DNA from: Escherichia coli
Lineage (GTDB): Bacteria; Pseudomonadota; Gammaproteobacteria; Enterobacterales; Enterobacteriaceae
DNA: 64,000 nt
Reading direction: 5' to 3' (one strand)
NCBI RefSeq assembly: GCF_003018255.1
Contig: NZ_CP027440.1
Shown: positions 7,053-50,798 of the stretch, in pieces
How the letters are laid out: each line of letters opens with the position of its first letter
How positions within the stretch are numbered: position 1 is the stretch's first letter
Made by a program: the position numbers and the translations under genes
Notes under the pieces: generated by a model
The model's database searches: none
What the model saw: only the letters and a program-made list of their open reading frames with translations
What the model was told of the DNA's origin: nothing

Positions 7053-8138
7053 TTACCAGCGTGGAATATCAGTCTTCACATCAGCATTTTGCGCCCGTTG
7101 CCGTAACAGGTGATCCATTAAAACGATCGCCAGCATCGCTTCAGCGATCGGCACCGCGCGGATCCCAACACACGGATCGTGACGGCCTTTGGTGATCATC
7201 TCAACTTCTTCGCCAAAGCGGTTAATCGTGCGCCCCGGCACAGTAATGCTTGAGGTCGGTTTCAGCGCCATATGGGCAATGATTTGCTGCCCGCTGCTGA
7301 TACCACCAAGAATGCCGCCCGCATGGTTGCTCTGGAAACCGTCTTTGGTGATTTCGTCACGGTTCTGGCTGCCACGCAGCGCTACCACGTCAAAACCATC
7401 ACCAATTTCCACACCTTTCACCGCGTTAATGCTCATTAGCGCATGGGCGATGTCGGCATCCAGGCGGTCAAAAACCGGCTCGCCAAGTCCGGCGGGTACG
7501 CCACTGGCAACGACGGTGACTTTCGCGCCGATGGAGTCACCCTCTTTTTTCAGCGCGCGCATCAGTTCATCTAACGCGTCGATTTTGTCCGGGTCCGGGC
7601 AGAAAAACGGATTTTGCTCGACCTGCGACCAGTCTTTGATTTCCAGCGGAATATCACCCATCTGGGTCAGGCAGCCGCGAATCTCAATGCCAAATTTCTC
7701 GGCGAGATATTTTTTGGCAATCGCCCCTGCTGCAACGCGCATAGCGGTTTCGCGGGCGGAAGAACGTCCACCGCCGCGATAATCGCGCAGGCCGTATTTT
7801 TGTTCATAGGTGTAATCGGCATGACCTGGACGGAAAACGTCCTTAATCGCACTATAATCCTGAGAACGCTGGTCGGTATTTTCGATCAACAATCCGATGC
7901 TGGTGCCAGTAGTAACACCTTCAAAAACACCGGAGAGAATTTTGACCTGATCCGGCTCGCGGCGCTGGGTGGTATAGCGCGATGTCCCAGGTCGACGACG
8001 ATCAAGGTCATGTTGCAAGTCCGCTTCCGTCAGCGGAATGCCTGGCGGAACACCATCGACGATGCAGCCGAGCGCCAGCCCGTGCGATTCGCCGAAGGTG
8101 GTTACGCGAAAGAGTTGTCCAATTGTGTTTCCAGCCAT
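7053..8138 (-). CDS. aroC: Chorismate synthase
   Basis: ORF 7053-8141; second Met taken as start giving 361 aa [20 protein letters not shown]... Confidence 0.95.
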
Positions 8139-25451: not shown

Positions 25452-25526
25452 GTCCTCTTAGTTAAATGGATATAACGAGCCCCTCCTAAGGGCTAATTGC
25501 AGGTTCGATTCCTGCAGGGGACACCA
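25452..25526 (+). tRNA. argW: tRNA-Arg (anticodon CCU)
   Basis: 75-nt sequence GTCCTCTTAGTTAAATGGATATAACGAGCCCCTCCTAAGGGCTAATTGCAGGTTCGATTCCTGCAGGGGACACCA; cloverleaf with CCT anticodon loop, T-loop GGTTCGATTCC. Confidence 0.95.
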
Positions 25527-25735
25527 GATACCCTTCAAACCAAATCTACCTTCACCCCGTAAAAGATGGGTTTGGCAGCACACTTGCCCTATATCTACTC
25601 ATTTTTACTGCAACAGGTTGAAATCTCAGCACTGTCAGAAAGCGCTGATGACTAAACAGCCCTGGGCCGGGCGATGTAACCATCATACAGAATCCTGATA
25701 GCGAAATATGGCGTGACTCGATACTTCACTCTGCA

Positions 25736-25888
25736 ATGCATTCCTTGATGAATTCGCAGGCCCGTGATACACGGGACACGTGGCTGAATGACGACAATGT
25801 CCTGGAAATCAGCGAACCGCGTATCCGGAGTACATTTGAGCGACTGTACCAGAACATGAATGAGGCGTTTGGATTAGGTGATTATTAG
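25736..25888 (+). other. Short unassigned ORF (50 aa) / possible gene remnant adjacent to argW
   Basis: Open frame with internal ATG 25736 ending TAG 25886-25888; frame is open back to 25652 and an out-of-frame ATG at 25648 precedes it, suggesting a degraded or frameshifted gene; below the 60 aa cutoff of the ORF track. Confidence 0.2.
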
Positions 25889-25967: not shown

Positions 25968-27215
25968 CTATATTGCTGAAGGTACAGGCGTTTCCATAAC
26001 TATTTGCTCGCGTTTTTTACTCAGGAAGAAAATGCCAAATAGCAACATCAGGCAGACAATACCCGAAATTGCGAAGAAAACTGTCTGGTAGCCTGCGTGG
26101 TCAAAGAGTATCCCAGTCGGCGTTGAAAGCAGCACAATCCCAAGCGAACTGGCAATTTGAAAACCAATCAGAAAGATCGTCGACGACAGGCGCTTATCAA
26201 AGTTTGCCACGCTGTATTTGAAGACGGATATGACACAAAGTGGAACCTCAATGGCATGTAACAGCTTCACTAATGAAATAATCCAGGGGTTAACGAACAG
26301 CGCGCAGGAAAGGATACGCAACGCCATAATCACAACACCGATAAGTAATGCATTTTTTGGCCCTACCCGATTCACAAAGAAAGGAATAATCGCCATGCAC
26401 AGCGCTTCGAGTACCACCTGGAATGAGTTGAGATAACCATACAGGCGCGTTCCTACATCGTGTGATTCGAATAAACCTGCATAAAAGACAGGAAAGAGTT
26501 GTTGATCAAAAATGTTATAGAAAGACCACGTCCCCACAATAAATATGACAAAAACCCAGAAGTTTCGATCCTTGAAAACTGCGATAAAATCCTCTTTTTT
26601 TACCCCTCCCGCATCCGCCGCTATGCACTGGTGATCCTTATCTTTAAAACGCATGTTGATCATCATAAATACAGCGCCAAATAGCGAGACCAACCAGAAG
26701 TTGATATGGGGACTGATACTAAAAAATATACCAGCAAAGAACGCGCCAATAGCATAGCCAAAAGATCCCCAGGCGCGCGCTGTTCCATATTCGAAATGAA
26801 AATTTCGCGCCATTTTTTCGGTGAAGCTGTCAAGCAAACCGCATCCCGCCAGATACCCCAGGCCAAAAAAGAGCGCCCCCAGAATTAGACCTACAGAAAA
26901 ATTGCTTTGCAGTAACGGTTCATAAACGTAAATCATAAACGGTCCGGTCAAGACCAGAATGAAACTCATACACCAGATGAGCGGTTTCTTCAGACCGAGT
27001 TTATCCTGAACGATGCCGTAGAACATCATAAATAGAATGCTGGTAAACTGGTTGACCGAATAAAGTGTACCTAATTCCGTCCCTGTTAATCCTAGATGTC
27101 CTTTCAGCCAAATAGCGTATAACGACCACCACAGCGACCAGGAAATAAAAAAGAGAAATGAGTAACTGGATGCAAAACGATAGTACGCATTTCTGAATGG
27201 AATATTCAGTGCCAT
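25968..27215 (-). CDS. cscB: Sucrose:H+ symporter (MFS, oligosaccharide/H+ symporter family)
   Basis: 415 aa ORF with 12-TM composition, recognised CscB sequence. Confidence 0.93.
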   Translation of the reverse strand: MALNIPFRNAYYRFASSYSFLFFISWSLWWSLYAIWLKGHLGLTGTELGTLYSVNQFTSILFMMFYGIVQDKLGLKKPLIWCMSFILVLTGPFMIYVYEPLLQSNFSVGLILGALFFGLGYLAGCGLLDSFTEKMARNFHFEYGTARAWGSFGYAIGAFFAGIFFSISPHINFWLVSLFGAVFMMINMRFKDKDHQCIAADAGGVKKEDFIAVFKDRNFWVFVIFIVGTWSFYNIFDQQLFPVFYAGLFESHDVGTRLYGYLNSFQVVLEALCMAIIPFFVNRVGPKNALLIGVVIMALRILSCALFVNPWIISLVKLLHAIEVPLCVISVFKYSVANFDKRLSSTIFLIGFQIASSLGIVLLSTPTGILFDHAGYQTVFFAISGIVCLMLLFGIFFLSKKREQIVMETPVPSAI

Positions 27216-27286: not shown

Positions 27287-28201
27287 CTATTCCAGTTCTT
27301 GTCGACATGGCAGCGCTGTCATCGCCCCTTTCGCCGTTACTGCAAGCGCTCCGCAACGTTGAGCGAGATCGATAATTCGTCGCATTTCTCTTTCATCTGT
27401 AGATAATCCCGTAGAGGACAGACCTGTGAGTAACCCGGCAACGAACGCATCTCCCGCCCCCGTGCTATCGACACAATTCACAGACATTCCAGCAAAATGG
27501 TGAACTTGTCCTCGATAACAGACCACCACCCCTTCTGCACCTTTAGTCACCAACAGCATGGCGATCTCATACTCTTTTGCCAGGGCGCATATATCCCAAT
27601 CGTTCTGTGTTTTTCCACTGATAAGTCGCCATTCTTCTTCCGAGAGCTTGACGACATCCGCCAGTTGTAGCGCCTGCCGCAAACACAAGCGGAGCAAATG
27701 CTCGTCTTGCCATAGATCTTCACGAATATTGGGATCGAAGCTGACAAAACCTCCGGCATGCCGGATCGCCGTCATCGCAGTAAATGCGCTGGTACGCGAA
27801 GGCTCGGCAGACAACGCAATTGAACAGAGATGTAACCATTCGCCATGTCGCCAGCAGGGCAAGTCTGTCGTCTCTAAAAAAAGATCGGCACTGGGGCGGA
27901 CCATAAACGTAAATGAACGTTCTCCTTGATCGTTCAGATCGACAAGCACCGTGGATGTCCGGTGCCATTCATCTTGCTTCAGATACGTGATATCGACACC
28001 CTCAGTTAGCAGCGTTCTTTGCATTAACGCACCAAAAGGATCATCACCGACCCGACCTATAAACCCACTTGTTCCGCCTAATCTGGCGATTCCCACCGCA
28101 ACGTTAGCTGGCGCGCCGCCAGGACAAGGTAGTAGCCGCCCGTCTGATTCTGGCAAGAGATCTACGACCGCATCCCCTAAAACCCATACTTTGGCTGACA
28201 T
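27287..28201 (-). CDS. cscK: Fructokinase (ROK/pfkB-family sugar kinase of csc regulon)
   Basis: 304 aa ORF with pfkB-family motifs (GG..N, DSTGAGDAF). Confidence 0.93.
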   Translation of the reverse strand: MSAKVWVLGDAVVDLLPESDGRLLPCPGGAPANVAVGIARLGGTSGFIGRVGDDPFGALMQRTLLTEGVDITYLKQDEWHRTSTVLVDLNDQGERSFTFMVRPSADLFLETTDLPCWRHGEWLHLCSIALSAEPSRTSAFTAMTAIRHAGGFVSFDPNIREDLWQDEHLLRLCLRQALQLADVVKLSEEEWRLISGKTQNDWDICALAKEYEIAMLLVTKGAEGVVVCYRGQVHHFAGMSVNCVDSTGAGDAFVAGLLTGLSSTGLSTDEREMRRIIDLAQRCGALAVTAKGAMTALPCRQELE

Positions 28202-28306
28202 TTTTTTCCCTTAAATTCATCTGACTTACGCATAGTGATAAACCTCTTTTTCGCAAAATCGTCATGGATTTACTAAAACATGCATATTCGATCACAAAAC
28301 GTCATA

Positions 28307-28318
28307 GTTAACGTTAAC
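28307..28318. promoter_or_regulatory. Perfect 12-bp palindrome GTTAACGTTAAC, candidate CscR operator (site 1)
   Basis: Read directly in the cscK-cscA divergent intergenic region; identical copy 64 bp downstream. Confidence 0.5.
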
Positions 28319-28370
28319 ATTTGTGATATTCATCGCATTTATGAAAGTAAGGGACTTTATTTTTATAAAA

Positions 28371-28382
28371 GTTAACGTTAAC
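28371..28382. promoter_or_regulatory. Perfect 12-bp palindrome GTTAACGTTAAC, candidate CscR operator (site 2)
   Basis: Identical to site 1, about 35 bp upstream of cscA start. Confidence 0.5.
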
Positions 28383-28416
28383 AATTCACCCAATTTGCTT
28401 AACCAGGATGATAAAA

Positions 28417-29850
28417 ATGACGCAATCTCGATTACATGCGGCGCAAAACGCACTAGCAAAACTTCACGAGCGCCGAGGTAACACTTTCTATCCCCATTTT
28501 CACCTCGCGCCTCCCGCCGGGTGGATGAACGATCCAAACGGCCTAATCTGGTTTAACGATCGTTATCACGCGTTTTATCAACATCACCCGATGAGCGAAC
28601 ACTGGGGGCCAATGCACTGGGGACATGCCACCAGCGACGATATGATCCACTGGCAGCATGAGCCTATTGCGCTAGCGCCAGGAGACGAGAATGACAAAGA
28701 CGGGTGTTTTTCAGGTAGTGCTGTCGATGACAATGGTGTCCTCTCACTTATCTACACCGGACACGTCTGGCTCGATGGTGCAGGTAATGACGATGCAATT
28801 CGCGAAGTACAATGTCTGGCTACCAGTCGGGATGGTATTCATTTCGAGAAACAGGGTGTGATCCTCACTCCACCAGAAGGCATCATGCACTTCCGCGATC
28901 CTAAAGTGTGGCGTGAAGCCGACACATGGTGGATGGTAGTCGGGGCGAAAGATCCAGGCAACACGGGGCAGATCCTGCTTTATCGCGGCAGTTCATTGCG
29001 TGAATGGACTTTCGATCGCGTACTGGCCCACGCTGATGCGGGTGAAAGCTATATGTGGGAATGTCCGGACTTTTTCAGCCTTGGCGATCAGCATTATCTG
29101 ATGTTTTCCCCGCAGGGAATGAATGCCGAGGGATACAGTTACCGAAATCGCTTTCAAAGTGGCGTAATACCCGGAATGTGGTCGCCAGGACGACTTTTTG
29201 CACAATCCGGGCATTTTACTGAACTTGATAGCGGGCATGACTTTTATGCACCACAAAGCTTTTTAGCGAAGGATGGTCGGCGTATTGTTATCGGCTGGAT
29301 GGATATGTGGGAATCGCCAATGCCCTCAAAACGTGAAGGCTGGGCAGGCTGCATGACGCTGGCGCGCGAGCTATCAGAGAGCAATGGCAAACTTCTACAA
29401 CGCCCGGTACACGAAGCTGAGTCGTTACGCCAGCAGCATCAATCTATCTCTCCCCGCACAATCAGCAATAAATATGTTTTGCAGGAAAACGCGCAAGCAG
29501 TTGAGATTCAGCTGCAGTGGGCGTTGAAGAACAGTGATGCCGAACATTACGGATTACAGCTCGGCACTGGAATGCGGCTGTATATTGATAACCAATCTGA
29601 GCGACTTGTTTTGTGGCGGTATTACCCACACGAGAATTTAGATGGCTACCGTAGTATTCCCCTCCCGCAGGGTGACATGCTCGCCCTAAGGATATTTATC
29701 GATACATCATCCGTGGAAGTATTTATTAACGACGGGGAGGCGGTGATGAGTAGCCGAATATATCCGCAGCCAGAAGAACGGGAACTGTCGCTCTATGCCT
29801 CCCACGGAGTGGCTGTGCTGCAACATGGAGCACTCTGGCAACTGGGTTAA
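28417..29850 (+). CDS. cscA: Sucrose-6-phosphate hydrolase / invertase (GH32)
   Basis: ORF 28408-29850; start placed at MTQSRLHAAQN; GH32 N-terminal motif WMNDPNG present. Confidence 0.93.
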   Translation: MTQSRLHAAQNALAKLHERRGNTFYPHFHLAPPAGWMNDPNGLIWFNDRYHAFYQHHPMSEHWGPMHWGHATSDDMIHWQHEPIALAPGDENDKDGCFSGSAVDDNGVLSLIYTGHVWLDGAGNDDAIREVQCLATSRDGIHFEKQGVILTPPEGIMHFRDPKVWREADTWWMVVGAKDPGNTGQILLYRGSSLREWTFDRVLAHADAGESYMWECPDFFSLGDQHYLMFSPQGMNAEGYSYRNRFQSGVIPGMWSPGRLFAQSGHFTELDSGHDFYAPQSFLAKDGRRIVIGWMDMWESPMPSKREGWAGCMTLARELSESNGKLLQRPVHEAESLRQQHQSISPRTISNKYVLQENAQAVEIQLQWALKNSDAEHYGLQLGTGMRLYIDNQSERLVLWRYYPHENLDGYRSIPLPQGDMLALRIFIDTSSVEVFINDGEAVMSSRIYPQPEERELSLYASHGVAVLQHGALWQLG

Positions 29851-29857
29851 CATAATA

Positions 29858-30853
29858 TCAGGTGGAACAACGGATCAACAGCGGGCAAGGGATCCGCGTC
29901 ACTCTTCCCCCTTCACGATCTTCAATAATATGCAATGCAGCTTCCCGCCCGATAATGTCATGTGGAAGCTGAATTGTGGTCAGCGGCGGTAAAAACAGAT
30001 GCCCGACGCCAACCAGATTATCAAAGCCCATTACGGCGACATCCTGCGGGATACGTACCCCCTTCGCCAGGAGAACCTGATAAGCGACAAAGGCTGCGCG
30101 ATCGTTACCACATATCAGAACATCAAAATCTGGTTTGCCCGATTTGAAGTGGTCATTGAGTAAACTTGCGAGATCGGTGTAGTGATCATCACCTGTTGCC
30201 ATGTGAAATTGTTTCACCTCAGCCAGATCTCGTCCAGCATCACGCCAGGCCTGCTCAAATCCCTGCCGACGATACCCTGTTGCCAACGCACTTTCCGGTA
30301 GCCAGAAGCATAACGGTTGACGATAGCCCGCCGCGAGCAAATGCTGTGTTGATTCATATTGTGCAGTGTAATCATCAGGGATATAACTGGGTAACGCTGG
30401 GTCATCCGCCACACAGTTCGCCAATACAATATTTTCACCATACAGAGACTCAGGCAGCGAGATATGTCGCAGCCCCATTGTAGTATAGATAATGCCATCC
30501 GGACGGTGGGCAAGCAGCTGACGTGCCGCGCGGGCAGCGTCATCTTCAGAAAAAATATTGATTAAAAAACTATTCCAGCCAAACTCGCTGGCGGTTTGCT
30601 CAATGGCAAGCAGAATATCAACAGAGAAAGGAGTGGTGGCCGTGTCCTGCGCCAGCACGGCGAGAGTCGACGGCTTACGTCCTTGAGCGCGCATCTTACG
30701 GGCGGAAAGATCAGGAACATAATTCAGGGTCTGGATTGCCTGCAATACGCGGTCACGCGTTGCAGGACGCACAGATTCTGCATTATGCATCACCCGGGAG
30801 ACTGTCATCATCGACACTCCCGCCAGGCGTGCGACATCCTTTAATGAAGCCAT
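29858..30853 (-). CDS. cscR: LacI-family sucrose operon repressor
   Basis: Six-frame ORF is 397 aa; start placed at internal Met giving 331 aa MASLKDVARLAGVSMMTVSRV (LacI-type HTH at the N-terminus). Confidence 0.9.
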   Translation of the reverse strand: MASLKDVARLAGVSMMTVSRVMHNAESVRPATRDRVLQAIQTLNYVPDLSARKMRAQGRKPSTLAVLAQDTATTPFSVDILLAIEQTASEFGWNSFLINIFSEDDAARAARQLLAHRPDGIIYTTMGLRHISLPESLYGENIVLANCVADDPALPSYIPDDYTAQYESTQHLLAAGYRQPLCFWLPESALATGYRRQGFEQAWRDAGRDLAEVKQFHMATGDDHYTDLASLLNDHFKSGKPDFDVLICGNDRAAFVAYQVLLAKGVRIPQDVAVMGFDNLVGVGHLFLPPLTTIQLPHDIIGREAALHIIEDREGGRVTRIPCPLLIRCST

Positions 30854-31083: not shown

Positions 31084-31314
31084 ATATGGATCATTGTGCT
31101 GCCGCTGTATCCCGACATCAGTCCGGAAATTATTGCGATTGCTATCGGTTCAGGTGCGATTGGCTGCACGATCGTTACGGACTCGCTTTTCTGGCTGGTG
31201 AAGCAATATTGCGGCGCTACGCTCAATGAAACATTTAAATACTATACGACAGCGACATTTATCGCTTCAGTCGTCGCTCTGGCGGGCACATTCCTGCTGT
31301 CATTTATCATCTAA
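31084..31314 (+). pseudogene. dsdX: 3' remnant of D-serine permease gene dsdX (GntP family), truncated at the csc cassette boundary
   Basis: Open frame of about 76 codons ending 18 bp before dsdA; hydrophobic C-terminal TM segment consistent with DsdX C-terminus; no full-length permease ORF upstream. Confidence 0.75.
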
Positions 31315-31331: not shown

Positions 31332-32663
31332 ATGGAAAACGCTAAAATGAACTCGCTCATCGCCCAGTATCCGTTGGTAAAGGATCTGGTTGCTCTTAAA
31401 GAAACCACCTGGTTTAATCCTGGCACGACCTCATTGGCTGAAGGTTTACCTTATGTTGGCCTGACCGAACAGGATGTTCAGGACGCCCATGCGCGCTTAT
31501 CCCGTTTTGCACCCTATCTGGCAAAAGCATTTCCTGAAACTGCTGCTACTGGGGGGATTATTGAATCAGAACTGGTTGCCATTCCGGCTATGCAAAAACG
31601 GCTGGAAAAGGAATATCAACAACCGATCAGCGGGCAACTGCTACTGAAAAAAGATAGCCATTTGCCCATTTCCGGCTCCATAAAAGCACGCGGCGGGATT
31701 TATGAAGTCCTGGCACATGCAGAAAAACTGGCTCTGGAAGCGGGGTTGCTGACGCTTGAAGATGACTACAGCAAACTGCTTTCTCCGGAGTTTAAACAGT
31801 TCTTTAGTCAATACAGCATTGCTGTGGGCTCAACCGGAAATCTGGGGTTATCAATCGGCATTATGAGCGCCCGCATTGGCTTTAAGGTGACAGTACATAT
31901 GTCTGCTGATGCCCGGGCATGGAAAAAAGCGAAACTGCGCAGCCATGGCGTTACGGTCGTGGAATATGAGCAAGATTATGGTGTTGCAGTCGAGGAAGGA
32001 CGTAAAGCAGCGCAATCTGACCCGAACTGTTTCTTTATTGATGACGAGAATTCCCGCACGTTGTTCCTTGGGTATTCCGTCGCTGGCCAGCGTCTTAAAG
32101 CGCAATTTGCCGAGCAAGGTCGTATTGTCGATGCTGATAACCCTCTGTTTGTCTATCTGCCGTGTGGTGTTGGCGGTGGTCCTGGTGGCGTCGCATTCGG
32201 GCTTAAACTGGCATTTGGCGATCATGTTCACTGCTTTTTTGCCGAACCAACGCACTCCCCTTGTATGCTGTTAGGCGTCCATACAGGATTACACGATCAG
32301 ATTTCTGTTCAGGATATTGGTATCGATAACCTTACCGCAGCGGATGGCCTTGCAGTTGGTCGCGCATCAGGCTTTGTCGGGCGGGCAATGGAGCGTTTAC
32401 TGGATGGCTTCTATACCCTTAGCGATCAAACCATGTATGACATGCTTGGCTGGCTGACGCAGGAAGAAGGTATTCGTCTTGAACCTTCGGCACTGGCGGG
32501 TATGGCCGGACCTCAGCGCGTGTGTGCATCAGTAAGTTACCAACAGATGCACGGTTTCAGCGCAGAACAACTGCATAATGCCACTCATCTGGTGTGGGCG
32601 ACGGGAGGTGGAATGGTGCCGGAAGAAGAGATGGAGCAATATCTGGCAAAAGGCCGTTCATAA
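31332..32663 (+). CDS. dsdA: D-serine ammonia-lyase (D-serine dehydratase)
   Basis: 443 aa [22 protein letters not shown]..., PLP-lysine region SGSIKARGG. Confidence 0.95.
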
Positions 32664-50422: not shown

Positions 50423-50798
50423 AATTTCCTCAGATTAACGTTAGCGCCCGGACCGTCCGAGCGACGCTGCCACGATGGTGGCTGTTTTGAAAATAGCCTG
50501 ATTAATTTCTGTCTGTCCAGCGTTTTAGAACATTTTTATTAATGACGTTAAATGAGGAACTCTGCTTTAAAAACAGGAAATTTATCTGCGCTAACAAGAA
50601 AATTACCACCCATTTTATTAACATAATAATTTCAATAAATTTACTAACCAGAAGTGCATTATCAAGAGATGCATTGCTAATACACCATTTATCTATCAAT
50701 CCCCTTTTAAAATTGTGGTTTTTCCTCAAAAACGGCCTGCTGGTCATCAGCCTTCAGGTTACCTATCATAGAGGTTTAATCCTTATTCAGAGTCACCC

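Follow-up and report, generated by a model that had tools for sequence, protein, structure and literature searches.

The closest described system is the csc regulon of Escherichia coli EC3132 and W (Jahreis 2002, J Bacteriol 184:5307; Sabri 2013). As related in the part of PMC11251922 (2024) that deals with it, Jahreis et al. 2002 named two 12-bp inverted repeats as putative operators of the repressor CscR, one of which carried an up-mutation. In the same account, cscA is said to be expressed more strongly when the operator is mutated. The CRP site adjoins the -35 region and the repeats are conserved in five species (PMC11251922). Two CRP sites and a dependence on cAMP have been reported (PMC3938415, PMC11251922), and loss of cscR by deletion or truncation derepresses the csc regulon (PMC3938415, PMC6599523). 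A spontaneous point mutation in the 'cscKB operator binding site' was re-isolated in 2014 in strain Tn69 and leads to growth on low sucrose; according to that study such a mutation had been seen before (PMC3938415).

The scrY promoter of pUR400 and Klebsiella, controlled by ScrR, resembles csc in having a CRP site and a downstream repeat that covers part of the transcription start region (Cowan 1991; Jahreis and Lengeler 1993, both as summarized in passages of PMC11251922). In the same passages the scrY CRP site lies further upstream than the csc CRP site, the ScrR operators are 14-bp repeats of a different sequence, and the inducers are fructose and fructose-1-phosphate. ScrR is placed in a different orthologous group from CscR, one related to FruR (PMC4052901 and the account in PMC11251922).

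Two further comparisons concern the geometry. In the two-operator systems of LacI and GalR, as in csc, LacI-family operators bracket a CRP-dependent promoter with same-face spacing. The spacing is 92 bp for lac O1-O3 and 113 bp for gal OE-OI, both longer than the 64 bp of csc, and unlike LacI, CscR is without the tetramerisation tail. In CytR-CRP anti-activation (deoP2, cdd, udp), as in csc, the site of a LacI-family repressor lies between two CRP sites. CytR operators are weak, degenerate and dependent on CRP contacts, whereas the csc operators are perfect, strongly conserved palindromes. The CRP sites are about 52 bp apart in CytR systems and 41 bp apart in csc, and CscR is not a CytR orthologue (see below).

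Here we examined a pair of identical palindromes in the csc region of an E. coli chromosome, using the whole 64-kb stretch of DNA (the window) and a set of CscR orthologue loci. The palindromes are very probably the operators of the sucrose repressor CscR. The pair is the already known pair of csc operators (Jahreis et al. 2002), so that the idea of the earlier note on this DNA is a correct re-discovery. The strain shows no difference of substance from the csc regulon of EC3132 and W, having the same locus, repeats, CRP sites and repressor.

Results

Genes and location of the csc block

Gene identities were obtained from NCBIfam models and RefSeq annotation (Table 1). Both bear out the gene names of the earlier note, including a LacI-type cscR adjoining the other genes. 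In most genomes the RefSeq/PGAP product name of cscK is 'aminoimidazole riboside kinase', though the NF006957 fructokinase cutoff is passed. An in-frame ATG at 28408 lies three codons upstream of the annotated cscA start at 28417 (MIK-MTQ...), and the ORF lister gives the longer form of cscA that starts there.

Table 1. Genes of the csc block and predicted regulatory features of the cscK-cscA intergenic region (window coordinates)
Feature	Position	Strand	Description
cscB	25968-27215	-	sucrose:H+ symporter, oligosaccharide MFS transporter; TIGR00882, 594.6 bits
cscK	27287-28201	-	fructokinase, first gene of the cscKB operon; NF006957 equivalog, 505.9 bits vs cutoff 450
CRP-KB	28281..28296, centre 28288.5		weaker CRP-like site on the cscK side of O1; TGCATATTCGATCACA, 3 mismatches
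O1	28307..28318		operator distal to cscA, named 'cscKB operator' in papers on csc; GTTAACGTTAAC between two CRP sites
CRP-A	28322..28337, centre 28329.5		putative site of cAMP-CRP at the cscA promoter; TGTGATATTCATCGCA (TGTGA-N6-TCACA with 1 mismatch)
-10 region	28358..28369	+	candidate for the cscA promoter, read from the sequence; TATTTT 28358-63 or TATAAA 28364-69
O2	28371..28382		proximal operator; GTTAACGTTAAC, 35 bp upstream of the cscA ATG
cscA	28417-29850	+	sucrose hydrolase (invertase), scrB-family; TIGR01322, 478 bits
cscR	29858-30853	-	LacI-family repressor, 331 aa; LacI-family NCBIfam models

The window covers the chromosomal argW - csc - dsdA region. On one side the csc block is flanked by tRNA-Arg argW (25452-25526) and then a DUF4942 fragment (the two within 25452-25888), on the other by a truncated dsdX pseudogene (31096-31314) and an intact dsdA (31332-32663). 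This placement agrees with the published csc/dsd hot spot (PMC11251922). The 5.2-kb block is 100% identical to that of E. coli JNE112863. Of 5,426 complete E. coli genomes, 2,645 contain the block at >=80% coverage and 2,662 contain the cscK-cscA intergenic region. Only 4 matches were labelled as plasmid, and at least two of these are multi-megabase records. Plasmid spread of csc was considered and rejected; the one record inspected was a 1.4-Mb sequence labelled plasmid, and the matches look like chromosome filed as plasmid. Autoregulation of cscR in E. coli was likewise rejected, as no operator-like site was found upstream of cscR in the window, where the best match has 4 mismatches.

The palindrome pair

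Reading of the sequence and a pattern search both found GTTAACGTTAAC at the two positions of Table 1 and nowhere else in the window. The earlier note had claimed two identical perfect palindromes at exactly these positions, between the divergent cscKB and cscA, and the coordinates agree with that placement in the 215-bp intergenic region. Its statement that they are '64 bp apart' holds as a start-to-start distance; the gap between them is 52 bp. The palindrome consists of GTTAAC followed by GTTAAC. It is of even length, with a central CG step at C6-G7, and the E. coli flanks of the 12-bp core are not palindromic. The identity of the two copies stretches to 17 nt (AGTTAACGTTAACATTT and AGTTAACGTTAACAATT), a direct repeat that can be written as AGTTAACGTTAACA(T/A)TT.

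Both the form and the position of the sites are those of LacI-family operators. A central CG is found in the operators of 1173/1303 LacI-family regulators (PMC4052901), which confirms the earlier note in calling a CG-centred palindrome typical of the family. The first base of O1 is 106 bp away from the cscK start (28201), and both sites lie within ~30-140 bp upstream from the regulated gene's start codon, the range of LacI-family operators (PMC4052901). A full-text literature search for the operator sequence itself returned unrelated primers only.

A single 12-bp palindrome is ordinary in DNA of this kind, as the window holds 17 perfect ones against 15.8 +/- 4.0 in shuffles. GTTAACGTTAAC is the sole palindrome present twice, with both copies inside one intergenic region. 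Sites with <=2 mismatches to it number 8 in the window against 1.83 expected, and 0/100 shuffles reached 8. A chance origin of the pair was rejected because the two copies are identical and conserved across genera. The six sites with 2 mismatches were also considered as extra CscR targets. None is paired or conserved, and they are treated as chance. They lie in coding sequence (a fimbrial adhesin gene, fadL, evgA, lpxP, yfeO) with one exception near alaC. This site, ATTAACGTTAGC at 50434-50445, falls between alaC and ypdA, 12 bp upstream of where alaC starts, and is the only near-match in the window outside coding sequence.

Anatomy of the intergenic region

O1 stands between two putative CRP sites, 3 bp from CRP-A and 10 bp from CRP-KB. 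The centres of the CRP sites are 41 bp apart, and the centre of O1 is 17 bp from one and 24 bp from the other. In the 64 kb just four sites have <=1 mismatch, CRP-A among them. An 8-nt inverted repeat, ATCACAAA / TTTGTGAT, flanks O1 and contains the TCACAAA/TTTGTGA halves of the CRP sites.

A simple consensus scan of the region found no canonical sigma-70 promoter, which is expected because the promoter is activator-dependent. The transcription starts given below are therefore inferred. O2 is preceded by an AT-rich stretch that holds both candidate -10 hexamers. With TATTTT as the -10 hexamer, transcription of cscA would start at ~28370-71, CRP-A would be centred near -41.5, a class II position, and O2 would cover ~+1 to +12. 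O2 is therefore likely to lie over or just downstream of the cscA start. On the other side, the centre of O1 would be near -65 relative to a class II cscKB start driven by CRP-KB. It would thus be upstream of the activator and not over the cscKB core promoter. Since a position around -65 is not that of classical occlusion, the mode of action of O1 on cscKB is uncertain.

These positions bear on the suggestion of the earlier note that one site could serve each promoter. In a strict form of it, O1 would act only on cscKB and O2 only on cscA by independent, simple occlusion. The location of O2 in the cscA start region fits this suggestion. The mutation of the cscKB operator also fits, as it alone allows growth on low sucrose (PMC3938415). 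The position of O1 upstream of CRP-KB does not. O1 is moreover so close to CRP-A that its occupancy should affect cscA too, and the operator mutation was described, in the account available through PMC11251922, as raising cscA expression. An independent division of labor between the two sites appears doubtful, and is further weakened by the comparison of loci that follows.

Conservation of the pair among CscR loci

To examine conservation, a protein scan with CscR was carried out using one genome per species. It yielded 73 loci (1.16 Mb) with orthologues ranging from 96% to ~50% identity. The genera include Escherichia, Citrobacter, Pluralibacter, Tatumella, Pectobacterium, Samsonia, Rahnella, Rosenbergiella, Providencia, Proteus, Enterobacter, Klebsiella, Raoultella, Serratia, Yersinia, Aeromonas and Gilliamella, among others. 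Perfect GTTAACGTTAAC sites occur 74 times in the 73 loci against 0.085 expected (~870-fold enriched), and sites with <=1 mismatch 153 times against 3.1 expected. A pair of sites is present in 58/73 loci, and most of the remaining loci have a single site, which in Providencia is perfect. The spacing of the pair is 64 bp in 38 loci, 63 bp in 6, 62 bp in 1, 57 bp in 4 (Gilliamella) and 68-69 bp in 9 (Proteus). These results, which rest on sequence comparison, indicate that across Enterobacterales both the motif and its paired arrangement accompany cscR orthologues.

Among 140 distinct sites the central CG is 96% conserved. LacI-family operators are 16-22 nt long and consist of two conserved inverted half-sites. 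Here the strongly conserved core is 12 bp, and a weak extension of the symmetrised profile, at 0.4-0.8 bits for each flank position, reaches 18 bp. The symmetrised family-wide consensus, AAT-GTTAACGTTAAC-ATT, is an 18-bp palindrome, and its centring on CG is the norm for the family (PMC4052901).

The distal neighbor of the pair varies by group and may be cscK, cscB or cscR, in at least five gene arrangements. The module next to the first catabolic gene is constant. It consists of the proximal operator ~35-50 bp before the gene, the promoter, a CRP site, 3 bp, the distal operator, 10 bp and a CRP-like site. In an information profile of 28 dereplicated loci, two maxima fall exactly on the operators, the CRP blocks lie at fixed offsets and the remainder is unconserved; the profile holds for each of the three distal neighbors. 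O1 does not vary among these 28 loci, and its distance from the CRP core is 3 bp in all of them. O2 is conserved too; the single mismatch that it tolerates, GTTAACGTTACC, is that of the Enterobacter/Klebsiella group. CRP-A corresponds to a high-information block, TGTGATTAACATCA, in the orthologous loci, and CRP-KB to a conserved block, TTTGATCnCGATCnCA, at the same offset of 10 bp from O1.

Because this layout is constant across CscR loci, the pair brackets the cscA-side promoter as a unit. In Enterobacter/Klebsiella-type loci cscR is divergent from the operator pair, so that the pair is conserved around the catabolic promoter even where no second catabolic operon lies distally. Pectobacterium, Samsonia and Rahnella keep the pair with yet another distal arrangement. 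Neither situation is that of an O1 reserved for cscKB. We argue instead, from the conserved sequence, that the unit would be two operators bracketing the CRP-dependent promoter on the cscA side, with O1 common to both promoters.

A second operator-like pair was observed between cscB and cscR in the Gilliamella loci L039, L042, L043, L073 and L079 (~7820-7850) and in the Orbaceae loci L040 and L053. The two sites, for example TTTAACGTTAAC then GTTAATGTTAAC, are 14 bp apart start-to-start in most of these loci and 20 bp apart in L053. These sites come on top of those between cscA and cscK, which form a 57-bp pair or stand singly, and the regulon of the Gilliamella loci is split over two operator regions.

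We considered whether the palindromes could be read by another regulator, such as Cra/FruR or another LacI-type protein, or be non-functional repeats produced by duplication or paired HpaI sites. An AACGTT core is common to several LacI-family operators, which favors the first possibility. Cra has the consensus TGAA...TTCA, unlike the outer half-site bases of the palindromes, GTT...AAC. Whatever the gene arrangement, the motif stays with cscR orthologues at the enrichment given above, and its conservation is base-perfect while the flanks diverge freely, so the repeats are not a neutral duplication. No report of CscR-DNA binding by EMSA or footprint was found in the literature searched, which covers Jahreis 2002 and Sabri 2013 through later summaries. 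Deletion or truncation of cscR, however, derepresses csc (PMC3938415, PMC6599523). Both another regulator and non-functional repeats are extremely improbable.

The CscR protein and the spacing of its operators

CscR gives full-length matches to LacI-family NCBIfam models. The top-scoring model is CytR at 139.5 bits, far under its 436-bit cutoff. The protein has the layout of a LacI/GalR repressor, with an N-terminal HTH and hinge helix followed by a periplasmic-binding-protein-like effector domain, and it aligns from residue 1-3 onward to structures of PurR, LacI, CcpA and RbsR. The closest solved structure is that of an orthologue, 6NDI (E 8e-113), deposited with two chains. Residue 54 of CscR was placed by the ungapped offset of the LacI headpiece match and presumably corresponds to the hinge-helix 'leucine lever' (LacI Leu56 / PurR Leu54). 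It is Met in CscR and Ile in the 6NDI orthologue, and the operator is still CG-centred.

The regular spacing of the operators raises the possibility of a DNA loop, in which CscR dimers on O1 and O2 would touch in the manner of LacI or GalR and enclose the 52 bp that hold CRP-A and the cscA promoter. Helical phasing would in that case be what keeps the spacing at 64 bp. By arithmetic, 64 bp amounts to ~6.1 helical turns, so that the two sites share one face of the DNA. The spacing is 62-64 bp in 45/58 loci, across genera in which CscR is only ~50-55% identical. In E. coli, the sites are identical and flank the promoter, as at the ScrR-controlled scrY promoter (PMC11251922). The protein argues otherwise. 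Residues 3-318 of CscR align to residues 5-313 of the 360 residues of LacI, and CscR ends at 331, leaving 13 residues. The LacI tetramerisation helix, a C-terminal heptad repeat, comprises residues ~340-357, beyond the point where the alignment stops. The two chains of 6NDI also speak against a loop. CscR is probably a dimer. Phasing is not universal either, as the spacings in Proteus (68-69 bp) and Gilliamella (57 bp) are roughly half-turn shifts. A fixed spacing also follows without a loop, since CRP-A is held in place relative to both O1 and the transcription start, and O2 relative to that start. Because CscR is without the LacI tetramerisation tail, looping is unproven, and we regard it as unlikely.

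In nearly every CscR locus O1 keeps fixed distances from the CRP sites on its two sides. This also admits a defined CRP-CscR-CRP complex like that of CytR, or bridging between dimers to O2 over an unusually short loop of ~64 bp, rather than simple independent occlusion. Such cooperative arrangements seem quite unlikely.

Variation within E. coli

Among 8 sampled E. coli alleles, O1 and O2 are free of SNPs, and this strain differs from the other alleles by only a few SNPs, all outside the operators. The absence of operator SNPs is not significant alone, as 14 variable columns in 215 predict ~1.6 in 24 bp. Population variation was thus rejected as proof of constraint; the alleles are >=97% identical and have too few SNPs. 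The identity bands of searches with a 30-mer and a 40-mer could not tell operator SNPs from flank SNPs.

Two alleles are rearranged. E. coli O78 strain 3 (NZ_CP084096.1, locus L089) has a clean 64-bp deletion of one repeat unit, equivalent to window 28306-28369, which fuses O1 and O2 into a single operator and removes CRP-A and the cscA promoter. The deletion looks like the product of recombination or slippage between the 17-nt direct repeats. In E. coli UTAK-5 (NZ_CP157152.1, locus L008), an IS100 element (IS21-family, istA/istB) is inserted on the cscK side of the intergenic region at the equivalent of window ~28265. It separates the cscKB promoter region from the operators and leaves O1, CRP-A and O2 intact.

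Discussion

The palindromes that the earlier note put forward as candidate CscR operators are the same two 12-bp repeats as in the csc operator mapping of Jahreis et al. 2002, so far as that work is reported in PMC11251922. That assignment is supported by the operator mutation (PMC3938415) and by co-occurrence with cscR orthologues. Co-occurrence by itself cannot separate CscR from another factor that is always found with the csc genes; the locus encodes no regulator other than CscR. Repression by CscR, dependence on cAMP-CRP and derepression by operator mutation are reported in the literature cited above, and the present analysis adds the conservation of the sites and their linkage to cscR.

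Taken together, we propose that CscR controls the two operons as follows. Each CG-centred palindrome would be bound by one CscR dimer. At O2, at or just downstream of the cscA start, the repressor would block RNA polymerase at the cscA promoter. Since O1 is close to both CRP-A (3 bp) and CRP-KB (10 bp), repressor bound there would hinder CRP-dependent activation in both directions, and may in this way repress cscKB as well. Any cooperation between O1 and O2 would come in addition. When the inducer, sucrose or a product of sucrose, accumulates, CscR would leave the DNA and cAMP-CRP would activate both operons.

The pair and its CRP-operator-CRP geometry are kept across Enterobacterales, Aeromonas and Orbaceae, well beyond the five species in which the repeats had been shown before. 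Industrial E. coli strains fed on sucrose, both E. coli W and engineered K-12, are built on the csc regulon. The bases read by CscR explain the growth of cscR or operator mutants on low sucrose, and this knowledge is already in use.
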